IMG/VR virus record: IMGVR_UViG_3300032212_000069
Location: 1 to 38,598 of that record
Strand: one strand, 5' to 3'
DNA: 38,598 nucleotides
Source: a virus
Lineage: Duplodnaviria; Caudoviricetes
Shown here: positions 6,294 to 24,427 of the stretch, one piece after another
How the letters are laid out: every line of letters begins with the position of its first letter
Numbering within the stretch: position 1 is the first letter of the stretch
Made by a program: the position numbers and the translations under genes
Notes under the pieces: model-generated
Databases searched by the model: none
Seen by the model: only the letters and a program-made list of their open reading frames with translations
Told to the model about the DNA's origin: nothing

Positions 6294-6491
6294 ATGAATT
6301 ATTCTATTGTTTTGCATGATTTCTACTCGGAACATCAAAGTACCTGCTTAACAGATGCGTCTGAATTTGTCGCTAGATGCGGTATGAACCGTTTTATTTT
6401 TAATATGCAACATAAATGGGTATGGGACGTGCGTGGGCAAGATGGTTATGATGCCGACGGTGCTTGTGTTTTTATTCAGTTTAACACTTAG
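6294..6491 (+). CDS. hypothetical protein
   Basis: AAGGT SD; first gene of the cassette. Confidence 0.6.
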   Translation: MNYSIVLHDFYSEHQSTCLTDASEFVARCGMNRFIFNMQHKWVWDVRGQDGYDADGACVFIQFNT

Positions 6492-6497
6492 GCGTAA

Positions 6498-6656
6498 ATG
6501 ATCATGAAGAAAATAAAACTGTTTAATATGGCCGCTGCTGGTACTGGGCAGCCAACCTTTGACACCATTGATGAGGCTACCGCTTATGTTGGTAAAAATA
6601 ATGTAGTCCGCATTGATGGCGATGTTGTTTATTACTACATAGCGCCAACATTCTAA
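6498..6656 (+). CDS. hypothetical protein, 52 aa
   Basis: Hand-translated MIMKKIKLFNMAAAGTGQPTFDTIDEATAYVG...; fills the gap in the cassette. Confidence 0.55.
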   Translation: MIMKKIKLFNMAAAGTGQPTFDTIDEATAYVGKNNVVRIDGDVVYYYIAPTF

Positions 6657-6691
6657 CCACTATAGCCCCATAAGGGGCAAAGGATATTGAT

Positions 6692-6883
6692 ATGAAGCAA
6701 TTTATAGGTAAGACGTTAATCGGTAAAGATGCCATACAGGATGCTAGATTAAACTCTGGTCGTGTTATTGGTTGGACTTATGTTAGGGCAGATGATGAAG
6801 ATCCGCGCCGTGACACTTGGCTATATCTTTATAATGGCGTAGAAATAACAGATCCTAAAACAATCGCCAGCCTTTACGAGTGA
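6692..6883 (+). CDS. hypothetical protein
   Basis: AAGGA SD; co-oriented with the cassette. Confidence 0.6.
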   Translation: MKQFIGKTLIGKDAIQDARLNSGRVIGWTYVRADDEDPRRDTWLYLYNGVEITDPKTIASLYE

Positions 6884-6890
6884 TGTAGCT

Positions 6891-7037
6891 ATGCCTAAAC
6901 AACTCTGCATAGCAGATACAAAGTCTAAGCCTATTCCCTTCAAGGAACTGGCGAAACTGGCAAAAGCTGATGATCGTAACCTTTCAGACTATTGTCGATT
7001 AGTTCTTATTAACCATGTAAAGGAGAAAAATAAATGA
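6891..7037 (+). CDS. ribbon-helix-helix (Arc/CopG-like) DNA-binding protein, 48 aa
   Basis: Hand-translated ...FKELAKLAKADDRNLSDYCRLVLINHV; ATGA-coupled to the next ORF. Confidence 0.65.
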   Translation: MPKQLCIADTKSKPIPFKELAKLAKADDRNLSDYCRLVLINHVKEKNK

Positions 7038-7243
7038 TTAACTCTAACGTAAGCCAAGCGGATAAAGATGCTGGCGTTGTTGCCATCTCCGAAACTGTCT
7101 ACCCTTGCCCTATTTGCGGGAGAGATACAAACACATTCTACAAGAACCCCGTAGACGGTAAGCGCCACATTGTTTGTAGCTCAGAATGTGCAGATAATAT
7201 ACAAGCCGCTTTGGTTTTGCCGAATAGGTTCCTTAAAAGATAA
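7034..7243 (+). CDS. small zinc-binding protein
   Basis: CPICG...VCSSEC; AAGGAG SD. Confidence 0.65.
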   Translation: MINSNVSQADKDAGVVAISETVYPCPICGRDTNTFYKNPVDGKRHIVCSSECADNIQAALVLPNRFLKR

Positions 7244-7313
7244 ATAATCGCCCCCTCTACCTGCTGTAACAGGTAAAGAGAGCTAATCATAATCAATAAT
7301 TGGAGTATTAACT

Positions 7314-7655
7314 ATGACTACATCAAATGATAACACATACAATGGCTGGACAAATTATCCTACTTGGAACGTTAAGCTATGGATGGATAACGACCAAGGC
7401 TCTTACGAATACTGGCAAGAACGTGCAAACGATTGCTTTCAAGAGGCAGAACCTCAATACGAAGGCCAAACTAAACTTGATGACGCTATCTTTAATCTAG
7501 CCAGTGAAATTGAGTGCTACTACTCTGAGTATTACGGTGAAATCAGCGGCCTGTCCGAAAGTCCTTTTGGTGACTTGCTTGGATGGGCTTTAAATCAAGT
7601 TAACTACCGCGAGATTGCCGAAAATATGCTATCTGATCTTGATGAGGTGGCATAA
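7314..7655 (+). CDS. acidic phage protein (YNGWTNYxTWNVxLW type)
   Basis: GGAG SD; 22 Asp/Glu versus 4 Lys/Arg in 113 aa. Confidence 0.7.
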   Translation: MTTSNDNTYNGWTNYPTWNVKLWMDNDQGSYEYWQERANDCFQEAEPQYEGQTKLDDAIFNLASEIECYYSEYYGEISGLSESPFGDLLGWALNQVNYREIAENMLSDLDEVA

Positions 7656-7810
7656 TGTATAAATTAACCATTATCACTACATGGGGTCAAAAGATGGTGT
7701 CTTACTTTCAGACTCTTATTGCCGCTCAAATTCACGCTTCACGGTTTCATTGTGTTGACTGTTATCAAGTAGCTAGTCCAGACGGAAAGGTTATCTGGTT
7801 AGTTAAATAA
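7655..7810 (+). CDS. hypothetical protein, 51 aa
   Basis: GAGGT SD, TAATG coupling; MYKLTIITTWGQKMVSYF... Confidence 0.6.
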   Translation: MYKLTIITTWGQKMVSYFQTLIAAQIHASRFHCVDCYQVASPDGKVIWLVK

Positions 7811-7820
7811 GGGGGATATT

Positions 7821-8132
7821 ATGCCATTACAAAGACTTAAAAAAGGCCACGAATATATTATTACTACTGCTGGCGTATCTTCTGTTGATGCTTGTCGATT
7901 CAATGAATACGTGGGTAATATTTCGTTTACATTCTTTTACCATGTTGATGCTACAAATATGGTGACTGTATCGCATCGTGATAGCGGCAAAAGGATTGCT
8001 CAAGTTATGCGTGATGACTATAGGGTCAAAGAAAAAGACTACGCCAGAGATGCTGTATCCGATCTTGTGGCTAAATATGGCGCGGATAAGGTGCGCTGCA
8101 TCTTAACAAGCGCAAAGACTTTAGACTTATGA
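7821..8132 (+). CDS. hypothetical protein
   Basis: AAGGGGG SD; co-oriented with the cassette. Confidence 0.65.
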   Translation: MPLQRLKKGHEYIITTAGVSSVDACRFNEYVGNISFTFFYHVDATNMVTVSHRDSGKRIAQVMRDDYRVKEKDYARDAVSDLVAKYGADKVRCILTSAKTLDL

Positions 8133-8212
8133 ATAAATATATTGACCCGTCCTTATGGCCTGTCGTTGTATATGTTGTTGGGGCTATTTTATTAACCGAG
8201 CTTTTAGGATAG
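8129..8212 (+). CDS. 27-aa hydrophobic micropeptide
   Basis: MNKYIDPSLWPVVVYVVGAILLTELLG; ATGA-coupled. Confidence 0.45.
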   Translation: MNKYIDPSLWPVVVYVVGAILLTELLG

Positions 8213-8265
8213 CAACATTGCCAAGGATGGCATTCTATATTCCAGAATATGAAATAGGGGTTACT

Positions 8266-8367
8266 ATGGGTGCTTTAATTATGATCGGCTTTATTGTTTG
8301 GGTGTTCTTTATGAACCCCATTGTTGGTATGTTGTTACTAATACTGCTCGCAATCATGGCAAAATAG
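8266..8367 (+). CDS. 33-aa hydrophobic micropeptide
   Basis: MGALIMIGFIVWVFFMNPIVGMLLLILLAIMAK after AGGGG SD (3' part of track ORF 8155..8367). Confidence 0.55.
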   Translation: MGALIMIGFIVWVFFMNPIVGMLLLILLAIMAK

Positions 8368-13255: not shown

Positions 13256-13916
13256 AATCGTTACTCGCTACTGATTCGCCGCTTAGTCTCTCGTCTGTCC
13301 ACTTTTCTTTAAGCAGGTATTTGCGAGGGCTTGGTATGTATTGCTTTTCTGTTTCGTTATAGCGAGTGCGGCAATCTTCTATTGCTATAGCTCTTTTCTT
13401 GTCACTTAACTTGTTCCATGCTATCTCTGCATCTACCTTGTCCACCCTCTTAGGCCATACATTCCAGAAATCAGAAAATGGAATTGAGCATATGTTCTTA
13501 TGGTTTTCTTTAAGATCTTTATGGTCTTCTTTATATATGCTGTTTACCGAGCGTATCGGATCTCCGAGAGTCCGGTTTTCAGCACCCTCGGGAATATCAA
13601 TGACTTGCGTGTGATTTACCCATGTAACCGATCCTTGAAGATTATTTGTATCTGGGTCTTTGATATAGGCTTTTGTTAGTAAGCCTTTGTTTACAAGCTC
13701 TTTTCTTGCTCTTGAGTAACGTGTTTGCCCTAAAGAGAATCTTTCCATCAAATCTACCTTGCGAACCACCCAATTTTCAGGTCGCGTAATGAGGTACAGC
13801 CAGATAGCTAAAGCGTCTGGATTCTCTATCACATTCACAGTCGCCCTAGGGATAATCTCGTAAGGGATTTTTGTCTTACGAAGGTATTGTCCGTCAATTT
13901 TATTTACTGGCATCAT
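13245..13916 (-). CDS. replication initiator (O-like)
   Basis: N-terminal wHTH-like ALAIWLYLITRPENW; C-terminal FSDFWNVWPKRVDK...AWNKL...YIPSPRKYL; upstream of the helicase. Confidence 0.75.
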   Translation of the reverse strand: MMPVNKIDGQYLRKTKIPYEIIPRATVNVIENPDALAIWLYLITRPENWVVRKVDLMERFSLGQTRYSRARKELVNKGLLTKAYIKDPDTNNLQGSVTWVNHTQVIDIPEGAENRTLGDPIRSVNSIYKEDHKDLKENHKNICSIPFSDFWNVWPKRVDKVDAEIAWNKLSDKKRAIAIEDCRTRYNETEKQYIPSPRKYLLKEKWTDERLSGESVASNDYVM

Positions 13917-14007
13917 AATGTTCCCGTTATTTTTATTAAAATCACCACATGGACTCCGCAGGTTAGGAGGGTTACAGCGCGAGCCTGCGAAGCCCTAACG
14001 ATTGTGG

Positions 14008-14439
14008 CTAACCGTGCAATAACCCCGCGCTGAGTGTTTCTGGTTTGTATAGCTTTCTGCCGTAGTCTTGTACTGGTGCGATAGTCTTTAAGTGCTTAAC
14101 TTCGCGTTGTGTTGGTAGTTCATCTTGATCCCAACGGTAAGGAACACCACACGAATGATTAACCCATTGACCACAACCGTTGCCATGTTCTGCCTCAATA
14201 GCGTCTATATGAGCATCATTAGCAAGGATTTCATTGATGGCGGCTTGAACTTCAACCTCAAAATCTTCATAGGAAATATCTTTGGTGAAAGACCCTAAAA
14301 AACGATCTTCGTATTTAGAGTAGATGCTTGGAAAGCCCTGCTCTGAACAGGCTGTAATTCTTGTTTTTCCCTTCATAAACAGGTATCTAGGGTTTTTTGA
14401 TGTACGGTTCTGCAACTGCTCAAAAGCAAGTTTAATCAT
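14008..14439 (-). CDS. hypothetical protein, first gene of the pR-like operon
   Basis: GGAGGGAG SD; no HTH recognisable. Confidence 0.6.
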   Translation of the reverse strand: MIKLAFEQLQNRTSKNPRYLFMKGKTRITACSEQGFPSIYSKYEDRFLGSFTKDISYEDFEVEVQAAINEILANDAHIDAIEAEHGNGCGQWVNHSCGVPYRWDQDELPTQREVKHLKTIAPVQDYGRKLYKPETLSAGLLHG

Positions 14440-14546
14440 GTCTCCCTCCAGAGTAGGTAATTGCTTACGGGTACTTAGGCAACTACTTACATATTTATTT
14501 TTAGAATTGGTATAAAGTAATGTCCAACATGGACGTTACAGTTATC

Positions 14547-14575
14547 ACTGTACACAATCAGACTACACGGGTCAA
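14547..14575 (-). promoter_or_regulatory. pR-like early promoter with overlapping 19-bp operator (14549-14567)
   Basis: TTGACC-17 bp-TACAGT; operator TGTAGTC-TGATT-GTGTACA on the minus strand. Confidence 0.8.
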
Positions 14576-14584
14576 GAGTGTAGG

Positions 14585-14613
14585 ATGAAAAGGGACATTA
14601 AATTATGTATAAT
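14585..14613 (+). promoter_or_regulatory. pRM-like repressor promoter, probably leaderless
   Basis: ATGAAA-17 bp-TATAAT with ATG 14620 at the expected +1; no SD. Confidence 0.6.
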
Positions 14614-14619
14614 GTACAC

Positions 14620-15012
14620 ATGAAAGATTCAACGGAGTTTGGGAAGCGGTTTTGTGCGGCACTTGAGTATGCTGGCTACAAGGATATGTCTGTTAGAAAT
14701 TTGGCAGATAGATTAGGGGTCGGCTTCACATCAATAGACTGTTGGAAGCGAGGCGCTAAGACACCAAGTGCAGAACGTCAAATCCAATTAAGCGATCACT
14801 TAGGCGTTGACGCTGGCTGGTTAATTACAGGTCGTGGAGTAATGAATGACGATCCAGCTATTAAAATCCTAGCTCAAATCGTTTCACAGATGAATGATAT
14901 ACAGCGTAAAGAGGTGTTTGACTACGCCGCATATATTCTGGAACGCGGCGCAGACAAATCTAAGAGGGAAGGTGAACCTCAATCAAACACTGAGAATCTC
15001 CGCGAGCTATAG
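14620..15012 (+). CDS. XRE-family HTH prophage repressor lacking an S24 peptidase domain
   Basis: FGKRF...SVRNLADRLGVGFTSIDCWKRGAKTPS...LSDHLGVDAGWLITGRG; about 130 aa; lies between divergent early promoters. Confidence 0.88.
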   Translation: MKDSTEFGKRFCAALEYAGYKDMSVRNLADRLGVGFTSIDCWKRGAKTPSAERQIQLSDHLGVDAGWLITGRGVMNDDPAIKILAQIVSQMNDIQRKEVFDYAAYILERGADKSKREGEPQSNTENLREL

Positions 15013-15340
15013 ACTTCTTGATTTCAACAGTTGCGCCCTCACAGCAAGACTGAGCCATTTCAGAAAAAACCACCTGAGTAACCCTGCATAGCTCTGGGCT
15101 ACCCTTAGAGTTACCGAAAGGACACCTACACCCCTTTAGAACTATCTTGTCTGTATCTTTGGATTCGATCCAAAAAACACCACCGATTTTATTCTTTAAC
15201 TTACACAAGCAATCACCGATTGTATTAACGCCCAGACTTCTGCCTGCTAATACCTTTCCAGCAAATTCCTTTGCGCTGGCATCTATATCCTGATTCCCCG
15301 CTACCGATCTTAATAAATCCCCAAAAAATTCCCCATGCAT
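14960..15340 (-). CDS. 4VR-fold, methanogen output domain 1 (MetOD1)-like protein, 126 aa
   Basis: IVLKGCRCPFG...PELCRVTQVVF...VEIKKSIARGDSQCLIEVHL; AAGGAGGT SD before ATG 15340. Confidence 0.75.
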   Translation of the reverse strand: MHGEFFGDLLRSVAGNQDIDASAKEFAGKVLAGRSLGVNTIGDCLCKLKNKIGGVFWIESKDTDKIVLKGCRCPFGNSKGSPELCRVTQVVFSEMAQSCCEGATVEIKKSIARGDSQCLIEVHLPS

Positions 15341-15366
15341 AACGACCTCCTTTTGTTGTTGAAATG

Positions 15367-15395
15367 AGTATAGACCAAAAAAATACAAATGTGTA
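15367..15395 (-). promoter_or_regulatory. promoter of the MetOD1-like gene with a degenerate operator (15369-15387)
   Basis: TACACA-17 bp-TATACT; TGTATTT-TTTTG-GTCTATA in the same register as the other operators. Confidence 0.5.
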
Positions 15396-15406
15396 CACTT
15401 TTGCGC

Positions 15407-15435
15407 TTGCTTTTTGTAGTCAATTAGTCTACAGT
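15407..15435 (+). promoter_or_regulatory. pL-like early promoter with overlapping 19-bp operator (15415-15433)
   Basis: TTGCTT-17 bp-TACAGT; operator TGTAGTC-AATTA-GTCTACA. Confidence 0.8.
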
Positions 15436-15441
15436 CTTGAT

Positions 15442-15693
15442 ATGGACATGAGAGATAAGGTCATTCAACGGGAAAAAAGCAAGGTTGGCTTGAGAGGCCG
15501 AATCAATGCTTTTTGCGCTCACTGTATTTATGACCCAATCGCAGGAAACGGCACTTGGAGAGAGCAAATAGAAAAATGTACGTCATACGACTGTCCGTTA
15601 TATGAAGTTAGACCTCATAAAAGGGGCGGGAAGGCACAAATAAGCGATCAATTAGACGAGAACTCGGAAATTTCGATTCAGGATATGGGTTAG
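15442..15693 (+). CDS. small Cys-rich (zinc-binding) protein, first gene of the pL-like operon
   Basis: INAFCAHCIYDP...CTSYDCPLYEVRP; ATG at the expected +1 of the promoter. Confidence 0.65.
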   Translation: MDMRDKVIQREKSKVGLRGRINAFCAHCIYDPIAGNGTWREQIEKCTSYDCPLYEVRPHKRGGKAQISDQLDENSEISIQDMG

Positions 15694-15766
15694 AAATTAT
15701 CGCCGCTAATTGGACGCTTAATTGATATGTAAGAGAACTCTAATAAACAACAATAAGGAGACTCAA

Positions 15767-15940
15767 ATGGAAGGAATTGATGAAGCAATAGACGAGATTC
15801 GAGATTTAGATATGTTCACCTATAAAACGTATCGGGACGATGGGCTAACCCCGTTTGAGATTGCCTACAGGGTTTTGAGCCATTTAACCAGTGAACAATG
15901 TGAAGACTTAGAGCGGAGGTATAAAAATGACAAGGGATGA
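15767..15940 (+). CDS. hypothetical protein
   Basis: TAAGGAG SD before ATG 15767. Confidence 0.6.
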   Translation: MEGIDEAIDEIRDLDMFTYKTYRDDGLTPFEIAYRVLSHLTSEQCEDLERRYKNDKG

Positions 15941-16223
15941 TTTAAGAGAAGACCCACCTGAATATTGTTTTGTCTTTGCCAGCGTTATTCAGGAATTGGG
16001 ATATTCGTTTGGGGGTCAGTCGTTCTGTAATGACATGGAAGATTTAATTGGTAACAACAATAGACCAGACAGTGATTGGAAAAGTAACTTTGCTCACATT
16101 CTTAACATGGTTGATGCGGCCTTAGAAGAAAAGATTGAGGACGAAGCAAAAAATGAGGCGTTAAAAAGTGATGCTGAGTTGCAGGCTGATTATATGGAGG
16201 CACAAGGCCATGATAGAGACTAA
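15927..16223 (+). CDS. acidic hypothetical protein
   Basis: GGAGGT SD. Confidence 0.6.
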   Translation: MTRDDLREDPPEYCFVFASVIQELGYSFGGQSFCNDMEDLIGNNNRPDSDWKSNFAHILNMVDAALEEKIEDEAKNEALKSDAELQADYMEAQGHDRD

Positions 16224-16473
16224 GCATACAGAGTTGCCTTGGGAACTAGAGCAAACTGAAAAAAATACAAATAACTTAGATATTCTCATAAAGACCAATG
16301 ACGAGAAATGGGTGTCATGGTCGTATAAAGAGTCTAACGCCGAGTTCATTGTTAGGGCATGTAATAACCATTACAAATTATTGGACACCCTAAAGGATAT
16401 TGATAACGGCGATCTATATGTTCTTGATGTAACCCGCGAAAGAGTCAGGCAAGCCATAAAGGACGCATCGTGA
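16210..16473 (+). CDS. phage hypothetical protein (KHTxxPW...NAEFIVRACN type)
   Basis: GGAGG SD; motif typical of phage early regions. Confidence 0.65.
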   Translation: MIETKHTELPWELEQTEKNTNNLDILIKTNDEKWVSWSYKESNAEFIVRACNNHYKLLDTLKDIDNGDLYVLDVTRERVRQAIKDAS

Positions 16474-21250: not shown

Positions 21251-21876
21251 GCGGCAACTGAGTTACTCTTTCTAAGATTATCCTCAGCAAAAAGCAACTG
21301 CATATTGTCCTCACAGTGCAGGCCGCAAACTTCCTTTCCTTGTAATGGGATAATGTGGTCTACGTGGACTTTTCTGCCAGTTCTATCAGCTTCTTTTTTC
21401 GCAAGCAAATACCATAACGCAATATACTTATGATTAGCCCAAGATGGCGTTGCCTTAATCCTGTTAGCCCTACGCTTTGCTGCGTTGGCATATACTAGGT
21501 GGGAGTTTTCCTTCTTCCATAACCTTGTTCTTTCATTTAATATGTCTGAGTTTTTAGCTCGGTACGCCTTGGCGTGCGACCTGCTTCTAGCCCTGCTTTC
21601 GTCTATGGATGCGTAATATCTAATCTTTGCCTTCCTGTTGGCCTCATCCTTATTCCTTTGATGCCACTCTCTGCCGATTTTGCGCTTTTTATCTCTGTTA
21701 TCTGAAACCCATTCGCTTACCTTCACCTTAATGTAGTCAGCGTTTTTTACGTAATATTTTTTCTGACTAGAAAGCATACATGCCTTGCATTGAGATTGGA
21801 GTCCGTCAGTCTTGCGAGAATCCTTATAATAATCCCGCTCTGGTTGTCTTTCTTTGCACTTACTACAAGTCTTCAT
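21247..21876 (-). CDS. HNH homing endonuclease with N-terminal zinc finger
   Basis: KTCSKC...CKAC; HVDHIIPLQGKEVCGLHCEDNMQLL...NLRKSN. Confidence 0.9.
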   Translation of the reverse strand: MKTCSKCKERQPERDYYKDSRKTDGLQSQCKACMLSSQKKYYVKNADYIKVKVSEWVSDNRDKKRKIGREWHQRNKDEANRKAKIRYYASIDESRARSRSHAKAYRAKNSDILNERTRLWKKENSHLVYANAAKRRANRIKATPSWANHKYIALWYLLAKKEADRTGRKVHVDHIIPLQGKEVCGLHCEDNMQLLFAEDNLRKSNSVAA

Positions 21877-22652
21877 GCAAAGATCTTCGGTTTAAACTTG
21901 CTCAATGGGACTCCCTCGTAGCGCAAACATAAGTACGATAAACTAATCTCCATAATATCATAGTCACCACCTTTGACCTCATGTTTGAATATGATGCCTC
22001 TCCAGTGGTTGTTCCCCTGATAACCCTTATACCCTTCGTCGTGTAGGTAACATGCTCCAGCTACTAATGCTCTGCGAGTGTCACCGTTACCAAGATCAAG
22101 TTGAGCAATATCTTTAGTTTGCTGGTGTCCCATAGTGAATGAAAAGCCAATATTCTTTAATCGAGTATGCGCTTGACCACCATAAGGCTTGCCTGTCATT
22201 GGGTTATAGAAGTAATGGGCGTAATGAACACCGTCTATACAAACAGGTTTAAGGAAGTCGTGAACCTCCCACTTGTCTTTCTTTAGATCGAAATCGTTAT
22301 AGGTGAGTTTTCCTGATAGTTCAGGGTTGGCGTTTACATGGCGCATAATGCGTTCTTCATGGTTGCCAATAAGGAATACTTTGCGGGGCTTATACTTTTT
22401 CTTGCGTTTAATCGGGGCTAATAATACACCCATAGCTCTTATTCCAGCATCTATATCATCCTGATACCTAGCGCCTTCTGCTTTGAGTGTTTTCTTGTCG
22501 TAATGAGATAGGGAGTGCATGTCGAAATGATCGCCAGCATGAATGATAACGTCAGGCTGTTTCTCTGCTATGTATCGACCAATCCACTTTAAATGGTCTA
22601 TGGGGCAATCAGGCTTAACTTGCGTATCTGGAATGAAACAATGAGTAGTCAT
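21873..22652 (-). CDS. calcineurin-like metallophosphoesterase
   Basis: IPDTQ, HAGDHFD, LIGNHE, YAH, MGHQQ motifs. Confidence 0.88.
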   Translation of the reverse strand: MTTHCFIPDTQVKPDCPIDHLKWIGRYIAEKQPDVIIHAGDHFDMHSLSHYDKKTLKAEGARYQDDIDAGIRAMGVLLAPIKRKKKYKPRKVFLIGNHEERIMRHVNANPELSGKLTYNDFDLKKDKWEVHDFLKPVCIDGVHYAHYFYNPMTGKPYGGQAHTRLKNIGFSFTMGHQQTKDIAQLDLGNGDTRRALVAGACYLHDEGYKGYQGNNHWRGIIFKHEVKGGDYDIMEISLSYLCLRYEGVPLSKFKPKIFA

Positions 22653-22714: not shown

Positions 22715-23128
22715 CTATTTGCGCTTTAACGTCTTAACCGGAAGCCCTGTGGAGGTGTCTATTTTACAAGCAATCTTAACTGCCTCTGTTGGGGTCTTAC
22801 CGCAATACATAGCGGCTAATGCTGCATCTGCACCAGAGCCTATGGCATAGAATTTATTGGTAAAGCGCATTGGGTATTCTGATTCATCCCATAGCTCTAT
22901 TTTGCCGTTACTCTTTAATATGATGATGTTGGTGTCGCTTAAACTAGGAGGTTCTTCTTTTCTTGTTTTGTACCAATCAATGAAAGCAAGTCCAGCACCT
23001 AAAGATCCAGCAAGACCTACAATGTCGCCATTAACTCTGAATATCTTGGTGCATCTAGCTCTTGTTCCGCCGTCGTCTACCGCAGAATCACCTGCCATTG
23101 ACTTTGAATCACATGCAATGGTTGTCAC
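22715..23128 (-). CDS. Ntn-hydrolase (HslV/proteasome beta-like) protein
   Basis: N-terminal MTTIA, AGDS, KIF, GLAGS, YAIGSG, D..TG. Confidence 0.75.
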   Translation of the reverse strand: MTTIACDSKSMAGDSAVDDGGTRARCTKIFRVNGDIVGLAGSLGAGLAFIDWYKTRKEEPPSLSDTNIIILKSNGKIELWDESEYPMRFTNKFYAIGSGADAALAAMYCGKTPTEAVKIACKIDTSTGLPVKTLKRK

Positions 23129-23379: not shown

Positions 23380-23949
23380 TTAAACCTCCGCTAAGTAACC
23401 AGCCATGTTGTGATCGTCAAATACCCCATCAGCACCCTTTAACGTAGTTTCTTCGCGATCGTGCGTATAAGGGAAAAGAAAAGGGATATGCACCGGAATA
23501 TGAGGTATTGAATCGCCATCACGTACATATCTGCGTCCTTTGCATCGAGATGATAATTTGCATAGACCTTTCATGCCCGCTCTAGGTGCGCCAAAGGTCG
23601 TTAGTTCGGGCAGGAAGCCCTTTTTTACGAGGTAGGCGGCGTATATCTGCGCTAATGCACCCCCAAGGGAATGTCCTGTTAAAACGACCTGCTTGCCATT
23701 AATTCGGCTGTCTAGGGTCTTTATGAGGGGTCTGAGGGACTTTAGGAAGCCAGCATGACACCAGACTCCTATCTCTCTTGAGTACCAAGGGACGACTCTA
23801 ATGTCCGTGATAAAGTCTTCTGCTTCTTCTGTTCCTCTGAATGCTATGTAGAGAACATCAGGCTTTTCAACAACGAGGACTTGTGTGCTGTCTTCTGAGT
23901 ATGTTTCTTCTGTGTAGGAACGTAGGGAATATTCAGCCAGTACGCTCAT
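23380..23949 (-). CDS. class 3 lipase
   Basis: IAFRGT, HAGF, TGHSLGGALA, TFGAPR, GDSIPHIP, DHNMAGY. Confidence 0.92.
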   Translation of the reverse strand: MSVLAEYSLRSYTEETYSEDSTQVLVVEKPDVLYIAFRGTEEAEDFITDIRVVPWYSREIGVWCHAGFLKSLRPLIKTLDSRINGKQVVLTGHSLGGALAQIYAAYLVKKGFLPELTTFGAPRAGMKGLCKLSSRCKGRRYVRDGDSIPHIPVHIPFLFPYTHDREETTLKGADGVFDDHNMAGYLAEV

Positions 23950-24257: not shown

Positions 24258-24427
24258 TACGGATTCCGGTCTTTATACATAGCGATTATTCTGTAAACAA
24301 CCCATGTAATCGTAACGACTACAAGTATGGTGTCGAATATCGGGTTAAGAAGATTAAGCCATGCTGTTACGCCTGCTGGTACAACGCCAGCATCGGCAGC
24401 GTGTTTAACTTGGTCAGGGATGCTCAT
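24257..24427 (-). CDS. holin-like membrane protein, 56 aa
   Basis: Hand-translated MSIPDQVKHAADAGVVPAGVTAWLNLLNPIFDTILVVVTITWVVYRIIAMYKDRNP; coupled to the endolysin. Confidence 0.7.
   Translation of the reverse strand: MSIPDQVKHAADAGVVPAGVTAWLNLLNPIFDTILVVVTITWVVYRIIAMYKDRNP

Follow-up and report, generated by a model that had tools for sequence, protein, structure and literature searches.

A stand-alone MetOD1 gene convergent with a phage repressor: a candidate cue-gated switch

In switches of the ImmR/ImmA type, a short XRE repressor has a linked partner protein, which is already there during dormancy and responds to a cue. In TF-smORF/VP882-type modules, as described in the available text of Silpe et al. 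(2023, PMC10432266), expression of a small antirepressor, directed against an autoproteolytic cI, is switched on by a transcription factor; according to the same text, the natural signals other than DNA damage that induce prophages are largely unknown. Oxidative, SOS-independent induction has also been seen, with no phage-side sensor named in the accessible portion of that report (PMC12628705).

The locus described here lies in a record of 38,598 bp, analysed over its full length (the window), which is classed as linear and rated 52% complete. An SU10-type portal and capsid, terminase, integrase, excisionase, ERF recombinase and replication initiator are all encoded in the window, and the presence of structural, integrase, excisionase, ERF and replication genes indicates a temperate tailed phage; the nearest relatives of the integrase are those of Pseudomonas phages (46-48% identity). 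As in ImmR/ImmA, a short XRE repressor without a peptidase domain has a linked partner. In contrast to ImmA, however, the partner is a MetOD1-domain protein rather than a zinc metallopeptidase, of which none was found among 67 ORFs scanned, and its gene converges on the repressor gene from a promoter of its own instead of being co-transcribed with it. With the TF-smORF modules, as far as the available text portrays them (PMC10432266), the locus would share a sensing route, encoded by the phage itself, by which induction can proceed in the absence of DNA damage, which here is a proposal; it differs in having no such gene pair, a peptidase-less repressor, and a candidate sensor without a DNA-binding domain. 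Partner-gated induction of a repressor is thus already known; the use of a MetOD1 sensor, placed in a PRM-like slot, would be a new and apparently undescribed form of it.

The convergent repressor and MetOD1 genes

The pair and its immediate signals are as follows.

14620..15012 (+): XRE/RstR-like repressor, 130 aa, predicted leaderless; from Pfam, PHROGs and alignments
14960..15340 (-): stand-alone MetOD1 (V4R/H-NOX/TRAPPC3-fold) gene, 126 aa from the ATG at 15340; from Pfam, fold and alignments
15345..15352 (-): MetOD1 Shine-Dalgarno site AAGGAGGT, 4 nt before the ATG; similar in relatives
14960..15012 (no strand): convergent overlap of the two genes, 53 bp here and 32-53 bp across loci

An earlier note on this DNA had described a 126-aa ORF with a Shine-Dalgarno site, 8 Cys and a C-P-F-G...L-C...S-I-A-R-G-D..C pattern, overlapping the 3' end of the repressor gene by 53 bp. 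All of these features are present at 15340-14960 (-), and the repressor stop codon lies at 15010-15012. The repressor start had been placed at 14605; ATG 14620 is most likely the start, because its Met is invariant in relatives and it lies 6 nt after a TATAAT. The view that the repressor lacks a peptidase domain agrees with our searches of Pfam and NCBIfam, which found none, and among the 67 ORFs scanned against Pfam and also PHROGs, no protease, antirepressor or Cro family was recognised. The window contains no perfect LexA box and 5 one-mismatch matches against 12.6 expected, none of them near the switch. Since the repressor is peptidase-less, no protease, antirepressor or Cro was recognised, and a perfect LexA box is absent, an inducer would be needed, though an antirepressor could lie elsewhere because the record is rated as little more than half complete.

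Alignment of the repressor against metagenome contigs yielded six loci: the window's contig and L010, L011, L012, L013 and L014. The recurrence beside repressors that the earlier note proposed to look for was found, as a convergent MetOD1 gene is present at all five loci with a full-length repressor match (the window and L010-L013, from two datasets). L011, L012 and L013 were located via the repressor and not via MetOD1, whereas L014, with 35% identity over the HTH only and no MetOD1, falls outside the count of five. Four of the five contigs carry one assembly prefix, and the loci form three sequence classes. Compared pairwise, the repressors are 57-95% identical and the MetOD1 proteins 46-96%. 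At every locus the MetOD1 stop begins 340 nt past the repressor ATG; the conserved part of the repressor ends there, and the tail beyond it varies between loci. The flanks, in contrast, turn over: the first gene of the rightward early operon is replaced in L011 while the pair stays, the 3' part of a 143-aa gene on the other side is replaced in L012 with MetOD1 kept, and the window, L010 and L012 have three different replication initiators. Two further candidates, L001 and L002, were dropped, as they were weak 28-residue matches, L001 lying inside a long unrelated ORF. Positions 4821-5869 of L014 belong to an unrelated, GC-rich element that carries an XRE gene and, behind it, a small gene that is ImmA/IrrE peptidase-like by eye, together with a recombinase.

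Viral contigs scanned with the repressor, 143-aa and four-Cys protein alignments returned only the L003/L010 contig and a weak HTH match, L005. For MetOD1, there was no match in 50,697 GenBank phage records with either a phage or a cellular query, none in PHROGs for three of three phage copies, none in BFVD at E<=0.001, and none in PADLOC, NCBIfam or PDB sequences. A scan of species genomes matched solely three methanotroph sigma-54 activators, and no prophage copy of the phage gene. No phage immunity module with MetOD1 or V4R was found in the literature, searched mainly as non-subscription full text; mentions of V4R alongside phage and repressor included predicted ParA conflict systems and a primer name. 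The cassette is conserved but narrow in distribution. One public run, labelled microbial mat metagenome, is listed with the stretch and is possibly the sample it came from. Contigs assembled independently from one public run span 14470-15536 and show 0 differences, and no RNA dataset carrying the stretch was listed in the public-run look-up. In run X1, over 13900-16400, an L010-like relative is ~30x deeper than the window's phage (contig depth ~1050 versus 35), so that at least two operator classes co-occur in this run.

Elsewhere in the window, the neighbours of the lysis module include, listed in this order, a class 3 lipase (23380-23949, -), a metallophosphoesterase (21873-22652, -) and an HslV-family peptidase (22715-23128, -). 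At 6294-8367 (+), a cluster of small orphan ORFs opposes the direction of the late genes and could be a second regulatory region; one of them, ORF 6891-7037, has no Pfam or PHROG match, and we take it by eye to be ribbon-helix-helix-like.

Fold and cysteines of the MetOD1 protein

The 126-aa protein matches Pfam MetOD1 (PF18546) with 52.9 bits against a cut-off of 23.8 (E 5.2e-14). No match to Pfam V4R (PF02830) was found at E<=0.01, MetOD1 being the only family reported, although by features V4R clusters are near neighbours of the protein. An AlphaFold2 model built from 94 sequences (pLDDT 84, pTM 0.78) was compared with 48,161 chains, and Foldseek agrees with the outcome. The closest folds include TRAPPC3/Bet3 (Z 9.0, rmsd 3.5, 125 aligned), PoxR (Z 8.6, rmsd 3.5, 123 aligned), V4R MJ1460 (Z 8.1, rmsd 3.6, 116 aligned), DmpR (Z 8.1, rmsd 3.6, 119 aligned) and H-NOX (Z 7.3). 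Because designed proteins also give Z 8.0-8.1, it is the Pfam match that bears the weight of the fold call. Together, the whole-domain match of the model places the protein in the predicted H-NOX/V4R/TRAPPC3 fold superfamily, so the MetOD1/V4R-type domain named in the earlier note is borne out as MetOD1 with a V4R-like fold, Pfam V4R itself not being matched. The haem motif of H-NOX proteins is YxSxR. The MetOD1 protein has no Tyr and is ~60 aa shorter than H-NOX chains, and an H-NOX haem sensor was rejected.

MetOD1 was described from methanogen response regulators and is uncharacterised in the available text of that description (Galperin et al. 2018, PMC5847659), where three Cys shared with V4R and a stand-alone architecture are also known; the phage copy has both of these. 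It differs from the described MetOD1 in being phage-borne, N-terminally shortened, equipped with three extra invariant Cys and placed next to a repressor. A homologue search of 1.84 billion representatives gave 246 matches, and conservation was counted on 148 sequences (from the best 150 of the 246). Among these 148, C73, C85 and C118 are retained in 147, 148 and 145, and T88 in 143, while C71, C99 and C100 occur in just 5, 3 and 2. Thus, three of the eight Cys are family-wide, alongside the conserved T88; six are invariant across the five phage copies, with C71, C99 and C100 phage-specific. The phage copies are ~45 aa shorter at the N terminus than cellular ones and sit on a long branch. Five short relatives cluster with them (support 0.89, FastTree), and viral contigs scanned for these five gave no match.

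Outside the overlap, dN/dS of MetOD1 is 0.04 in the one unsaturated pair and 0.07-0.34 in eight near-saturated pairs, one pair not being computable, which indicates from codon comparison that the protein is under purifying selection. This bears on a reading in which convergent transcription alone matters, through antisense or interference effects on repressor level, and the protein is incidental. The fixed overlap and the absence of a terminator-like hairpin across the pair at all five loci would suit such a role. Yet the strong selection on the protein outside the overlap and its invariant Cys set argue against it, and we consider it very improbable. The missing hairpin does make antisense overlap of the two transcripts likely, as the earlier note had suggested.

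The three family-wide Cys recall a triad in redox regulators. In the available parts of two recent reports (bioRxiv 10.64898/2025.12.26.696629; PMC12343034), SufR, which has a TRAPPC3/MopR-like domain, holds a [4Fe-4S] cluster via C179, C192, E195 and C220, ArnR is an NO sensor that binds a [4Fe-4S] cluster through three Cys, and TRAPPC3 is known in zinc-bound form. On these partial sources, the triads are spaced by 13 + 28 residues in SufR, 14 + 30 in ArnR and 12 + 33 in phage MetOD1. However, SufR and ArnR are fused wHTH regulators, whereas phage MetOD1 is a separate 126-aa domain without an HTH family, and the proposed fourth ligand, Glu or His in SufR/ArnR, is replaced at that place by Thr88. 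C71 could serve as a substitute fourth ligand; the resemblance to SufR and ArnR appears to be one of spacing only, and one cellular MetOD1 homologue scored E 0.072 against NCBIfam SufR_cyano, far under the cut-off. By analogy with these proteins, C73, C85 and C118 very probably form a metal site, with the balance between Fe-S and Zn about even.

The fold is also like that of the phenol-sensing V4R domains of PoxR, DmpR and MopR (Z 8.6 for PoxR, 8.1 for DmpR), and the nearest fused MetOD1 homologues are sigma-54 activators, as these are. Nevertheless, identity to them is 6%, with no Pfam V4R or XylR_N match. In three methanotroph genomes (L015, L016 and L017), a MetOD1-sigma-54 activator lies, by eye, downstream of a beta-carbonic anhydrase-like gene, a neighbour that is a possible clue to the family's ligand.

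Promoters and operator-like sites

In phage lambda, the starts of PR and PRM lie 82 bp apart, OR2 is located at -42 of PRM, and cI is leaderless. Activation of PRM by CI is both direct and indirect, the latter because CI keeps polymerase off PR, as set out in the available part of one account (PMC3167631). The corresponding elements of the present locus are listed by position.

14008..14439 (-): 143-aa orphan gene in cro position; in 4/4 loci reaching it
14547..14575 (-): early promoter predicted to point leftward ('pR', for the replication genes), start ~14540
14549..14567 (no strand): OR1 operator-like site, centre -18 on pR
14579..14597 (no strand): OR2 operator-like site over the -35 of the repressor promoter, centre -32; may serve in autorepression
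14585..14613 (+): promoter predicted for the repressor, its -10 hexamer 6 nt upstream of ATG 14620
15367..15395 (-): predicted MetOD1 promoter, -35 at 15390-15395, -10 at 15367-15372, start ~15360; -10 hexamer the same in 5/5 loci
15369..15387 (no strand): OL3, operator-like, over the MetOD1 -10; strong only in the window phage
15392..15410 (no strand): OL2, weak, one good half; 23 bp from OL1, centred at -41 relative to the start predicted for MetOD1
15407..15435 (+): early promoter predicted to point rightward (called 'pL' by analogy; ERF, xis, int), with a leaderless start at 15442
15415..15433 (no strand): OL1, palindromic 19-bp operator-like site, centre -18 on pL
15442..15693 (+): first pL gene, 83-aa four-Cys protein; in 4/5 loci, replaced in L011

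The 19-bp palindrome type occurs at 14549, 14579, 15369 and 15415; the motif was chosen after inspection, and the operator matrices were built from four half-sites each. At all five loci, the best two operator-like sites are centred at -18 on the two outward early promoters, and the sequences of the OL1/OR1-type sites shift with repressor class. An ATG follows 6 nt behind a -10 hexamer for both the repressor and the first pL gene at all five loci, which suggests that both mRNAs are leaderless; in L011, a different gene is swapped in behind the same first two codons of the first pL gene. A standard promoter scan performed at chance level (6 found versus 4.6 expected).

The predicted MetOD1 and pL starts are back-to-back and 82 bp apart at all five loci. 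Given this spacing and a slot 23 bp from OL1, OL2 is centred at -41. Its good half, which overlaps the -35 hexamer of the MetOD1 promoter, ranks in the top 0.02-0.14% in four loci and at 2.9% in L013; the window's OL2 half scores 9.1 on the L013 matrix against 9.6 on its own, and separation of classes by cross-scoring is poor. A 19-mer at 24305-24323 outscores OL3, OR2 and OL2, leaving only OL1 and OR1 above it; it lies within an ORF for a small membrane protein (24427-24257), located upstream of the endolysin. A weaker operator-like 19-mer, 15008-15026, falls on the repressor stop codon. With lambda PR/PRM the locus shares, by prediction, back-to-back promoters 80-83 bp apart and a leaderless repressor, and with lambda its left side shares the 23-bp operator spacing. 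In contrast to lambda, the PRM-like slot of a second switch would drive MetOD1, and Cro was not found. By this analogy, the PRM-like layout predicts that MetOD1 is expressed in the lysogen.

A different circuit had been put forward in the earlier note, in which the repressor shuts off MetOD1 through a site over its -10, and lytic expression of MetOD1 together with its antisense RNA substitutes for Cro in a double-negative loop. The operator-like site is there in the window, where OL3 is in the top 0.02% of 19-mers and its better arm is the -10 hexamer itself; there is also no recognisable Cro and no terminator-like hairpin between the genes. This part of the claim does not carry over to the relatives, however, as the OL3 position is at background in all the relatives (9.6%, 24.7% and 24.9%) but L013, where it is weak (0.8%), and the conserved 82-bp arrangement, read with the logic of lambda PR/PRM, favours MetOD1 activity when pL is shut. 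MetOD1 itself lacks an HTH and lies outside Cro's usual place as first gene of the early lytic operon. With a -10 operator that is not conserved and a PRM-like layout that is, MetOD1 is predicted to be on with the repressor bound, and we regard the Cro-like loop as improbable.

The usual place of cro is taken instead by the 143-aa gene. For its product, no HTH and no Pfam or PHROG family was found, and searches of an atlas and of known folds turned up nothing usable (best Z 4.3); residues 1-80 are modelled confidently as an alpha/beta N-terminal domain and the C-terminal half poorly, and a W-V-N-H-S-C-G stretch is invariant in 4/4 loci. MetOD1 might gate the switch through another phage protein, most likely this one, encoded first behind pR, or the four-Cys protein encoded first behind pL. 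The presence of the 143-aa gene at all four loci that reach it, with its invariant stretch, speaks for such a role, but MetOD1 stays both in L011, which has lost the four-Cys gene, and in L012, in which the 143-aa C terminus is replaced, and we give this route only a small chance. The pR leader (14440-14540, -) contains a 9-codon ORF (14530-14501), of equal length in L010 and L012 and 5 codons long in L013, and a hairpin preceding the ribosome site of the 143-aa gene. L010 has this hairpin in near-identical form, whereas L012 has another one in its place. The leader has no Rfam match; its ORF and hairpin are a candidate for translational control.

Possible targets of MetOD1

Only one neighbour of the repressor is constant, and it is a sensory domain with predicted expression in the lysogen; on this ground we favour a cue-gated partner of the repressor. 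Specifically, we tentatively propose, at somewhat below an even chance, that MetOD1 is a lysogen-expressed Cys-metal or Fe-S sensor that gates the peptidase-less repressor on a redox-type cue. First, the repressor at OL1 would probably shut pL and thereby free the back-to-back MetOD1 promoter, as lambda CI does for PRM, and it might also activate that promoter from the weak -41 site. Second, C73, C85 and C118 would, with high probability for the metal site, hold a cofactor like the similarly spaced triad of SufR and ArnR. Third, with roughly equal odds for and against, MetOD1 would act in trans on the gene it adjoins, as its cellular stand-alone counterparts may do. The candidate contact is formed by the conserved C-terminal helices of the repressor; a complex prediction for repressor residues 1-116 with MetOD1 scored 0.02 against a mark of 0.32, and with controls not run is no evidence either way. 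Cofactor-loaded MetOD1 could be a co-repressor that is lost on oxidation, or its damaged form could be an antirepressor, and both would give cue-gated induction. Antisense RNA from read-through would lower the amount of repressor somewhat, and so act in negative feedback rather than as a Cro-like toggle.

Cellular relatives bear on the third step. Among 61 homologues scanned, the longer ones carry, as fusion partners, histidine kinases, receivers, sigma-54 ATPases, LuxR, RsbW-like ATPases and ANTAR, with a weak HTH_11 in one and an XRE fusion in none. Of 17 plasmid matches, five were examined: at four, a stand-alone MetOD1 gene overlaps the start of a signalling gene, annotated as histidine kinase (2), response regulator (1) or PP2C phosphatase (1), and at the fifth MetOD1 faces a STAS gene. 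Because plasmid copies adjoin kinase, response-regulator and PP2C genes, stand-alone MetOD1 is likely a trans-acting input.

These same neighbours and fusions are what one would cite for MetOD1 as lysogenic-conversion cargo in the PRM-like slot, its target being not the repressor but a histidine kinase or PP2C/partner-switching stress pathway of the host, to which it would add an input or present a decoy in stress signalling. Accessories of the rexAB or sieB type sit between cI and pL in lambdoid phages. Moreover, L011 has a near-identical repressor (92-95%) beside a MetOD1 that is only 79-80% identical and contains a DNA patch at 58-72% identity, an allele exchange without repressor change that speaks against tight cognate pairing. 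On the other hand, accessory slots usually differ between relatives, whereas all five loci keep MetOD1 at the same offset while the flanks change. The ~45-aa shortening, long branch and three extra invariant Cys of the phage copies also count against cargo, which would in addition leave the repressor without a visible inducer. We judge it somewhat unlikely, whether as input or as decoy, although it is the strongest competitor of the favoured reading.

Direct gating of the repressor by MetOD1, our preferred reading, is supported by the 5/5 linkage, the fixed 340-nt offset, the flank turnover, purifying selection, the 82-bp spacing, the cysteine triad and the fold. Counting against it are the small number of loci (five), the lack of XRE fusions (0/61), the L011 mismatch, Thr at the SufR Glu position, the single good half of OL2, the coding-region site at 24305 and the chance-level promoter scan. 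A bolder form, in which a phage Fe-S redox/NO sensor made from a repressor-activated second PRM gates the repressor directly, in an SOS-independent, Cro-less switch that reads oxygen or redox state, seems to us rather unlikely. If true, it would fit phages of microbial mats, with their steep daily redox swings.

The 900-bp cassette of two genes and four promoters is small enough for rebuilding in the laboratory and bears on direct redox or metal sensing by phage; for the MetOD1 family, it would provide a cofactor and a partner that are amenable to study. Even if MetOD1 addresses host signalling instead, the phage has captured a cellular signalling input domain. If the favoured reading is true, the phage could wake on a chemical cue rather than on DNA damage.
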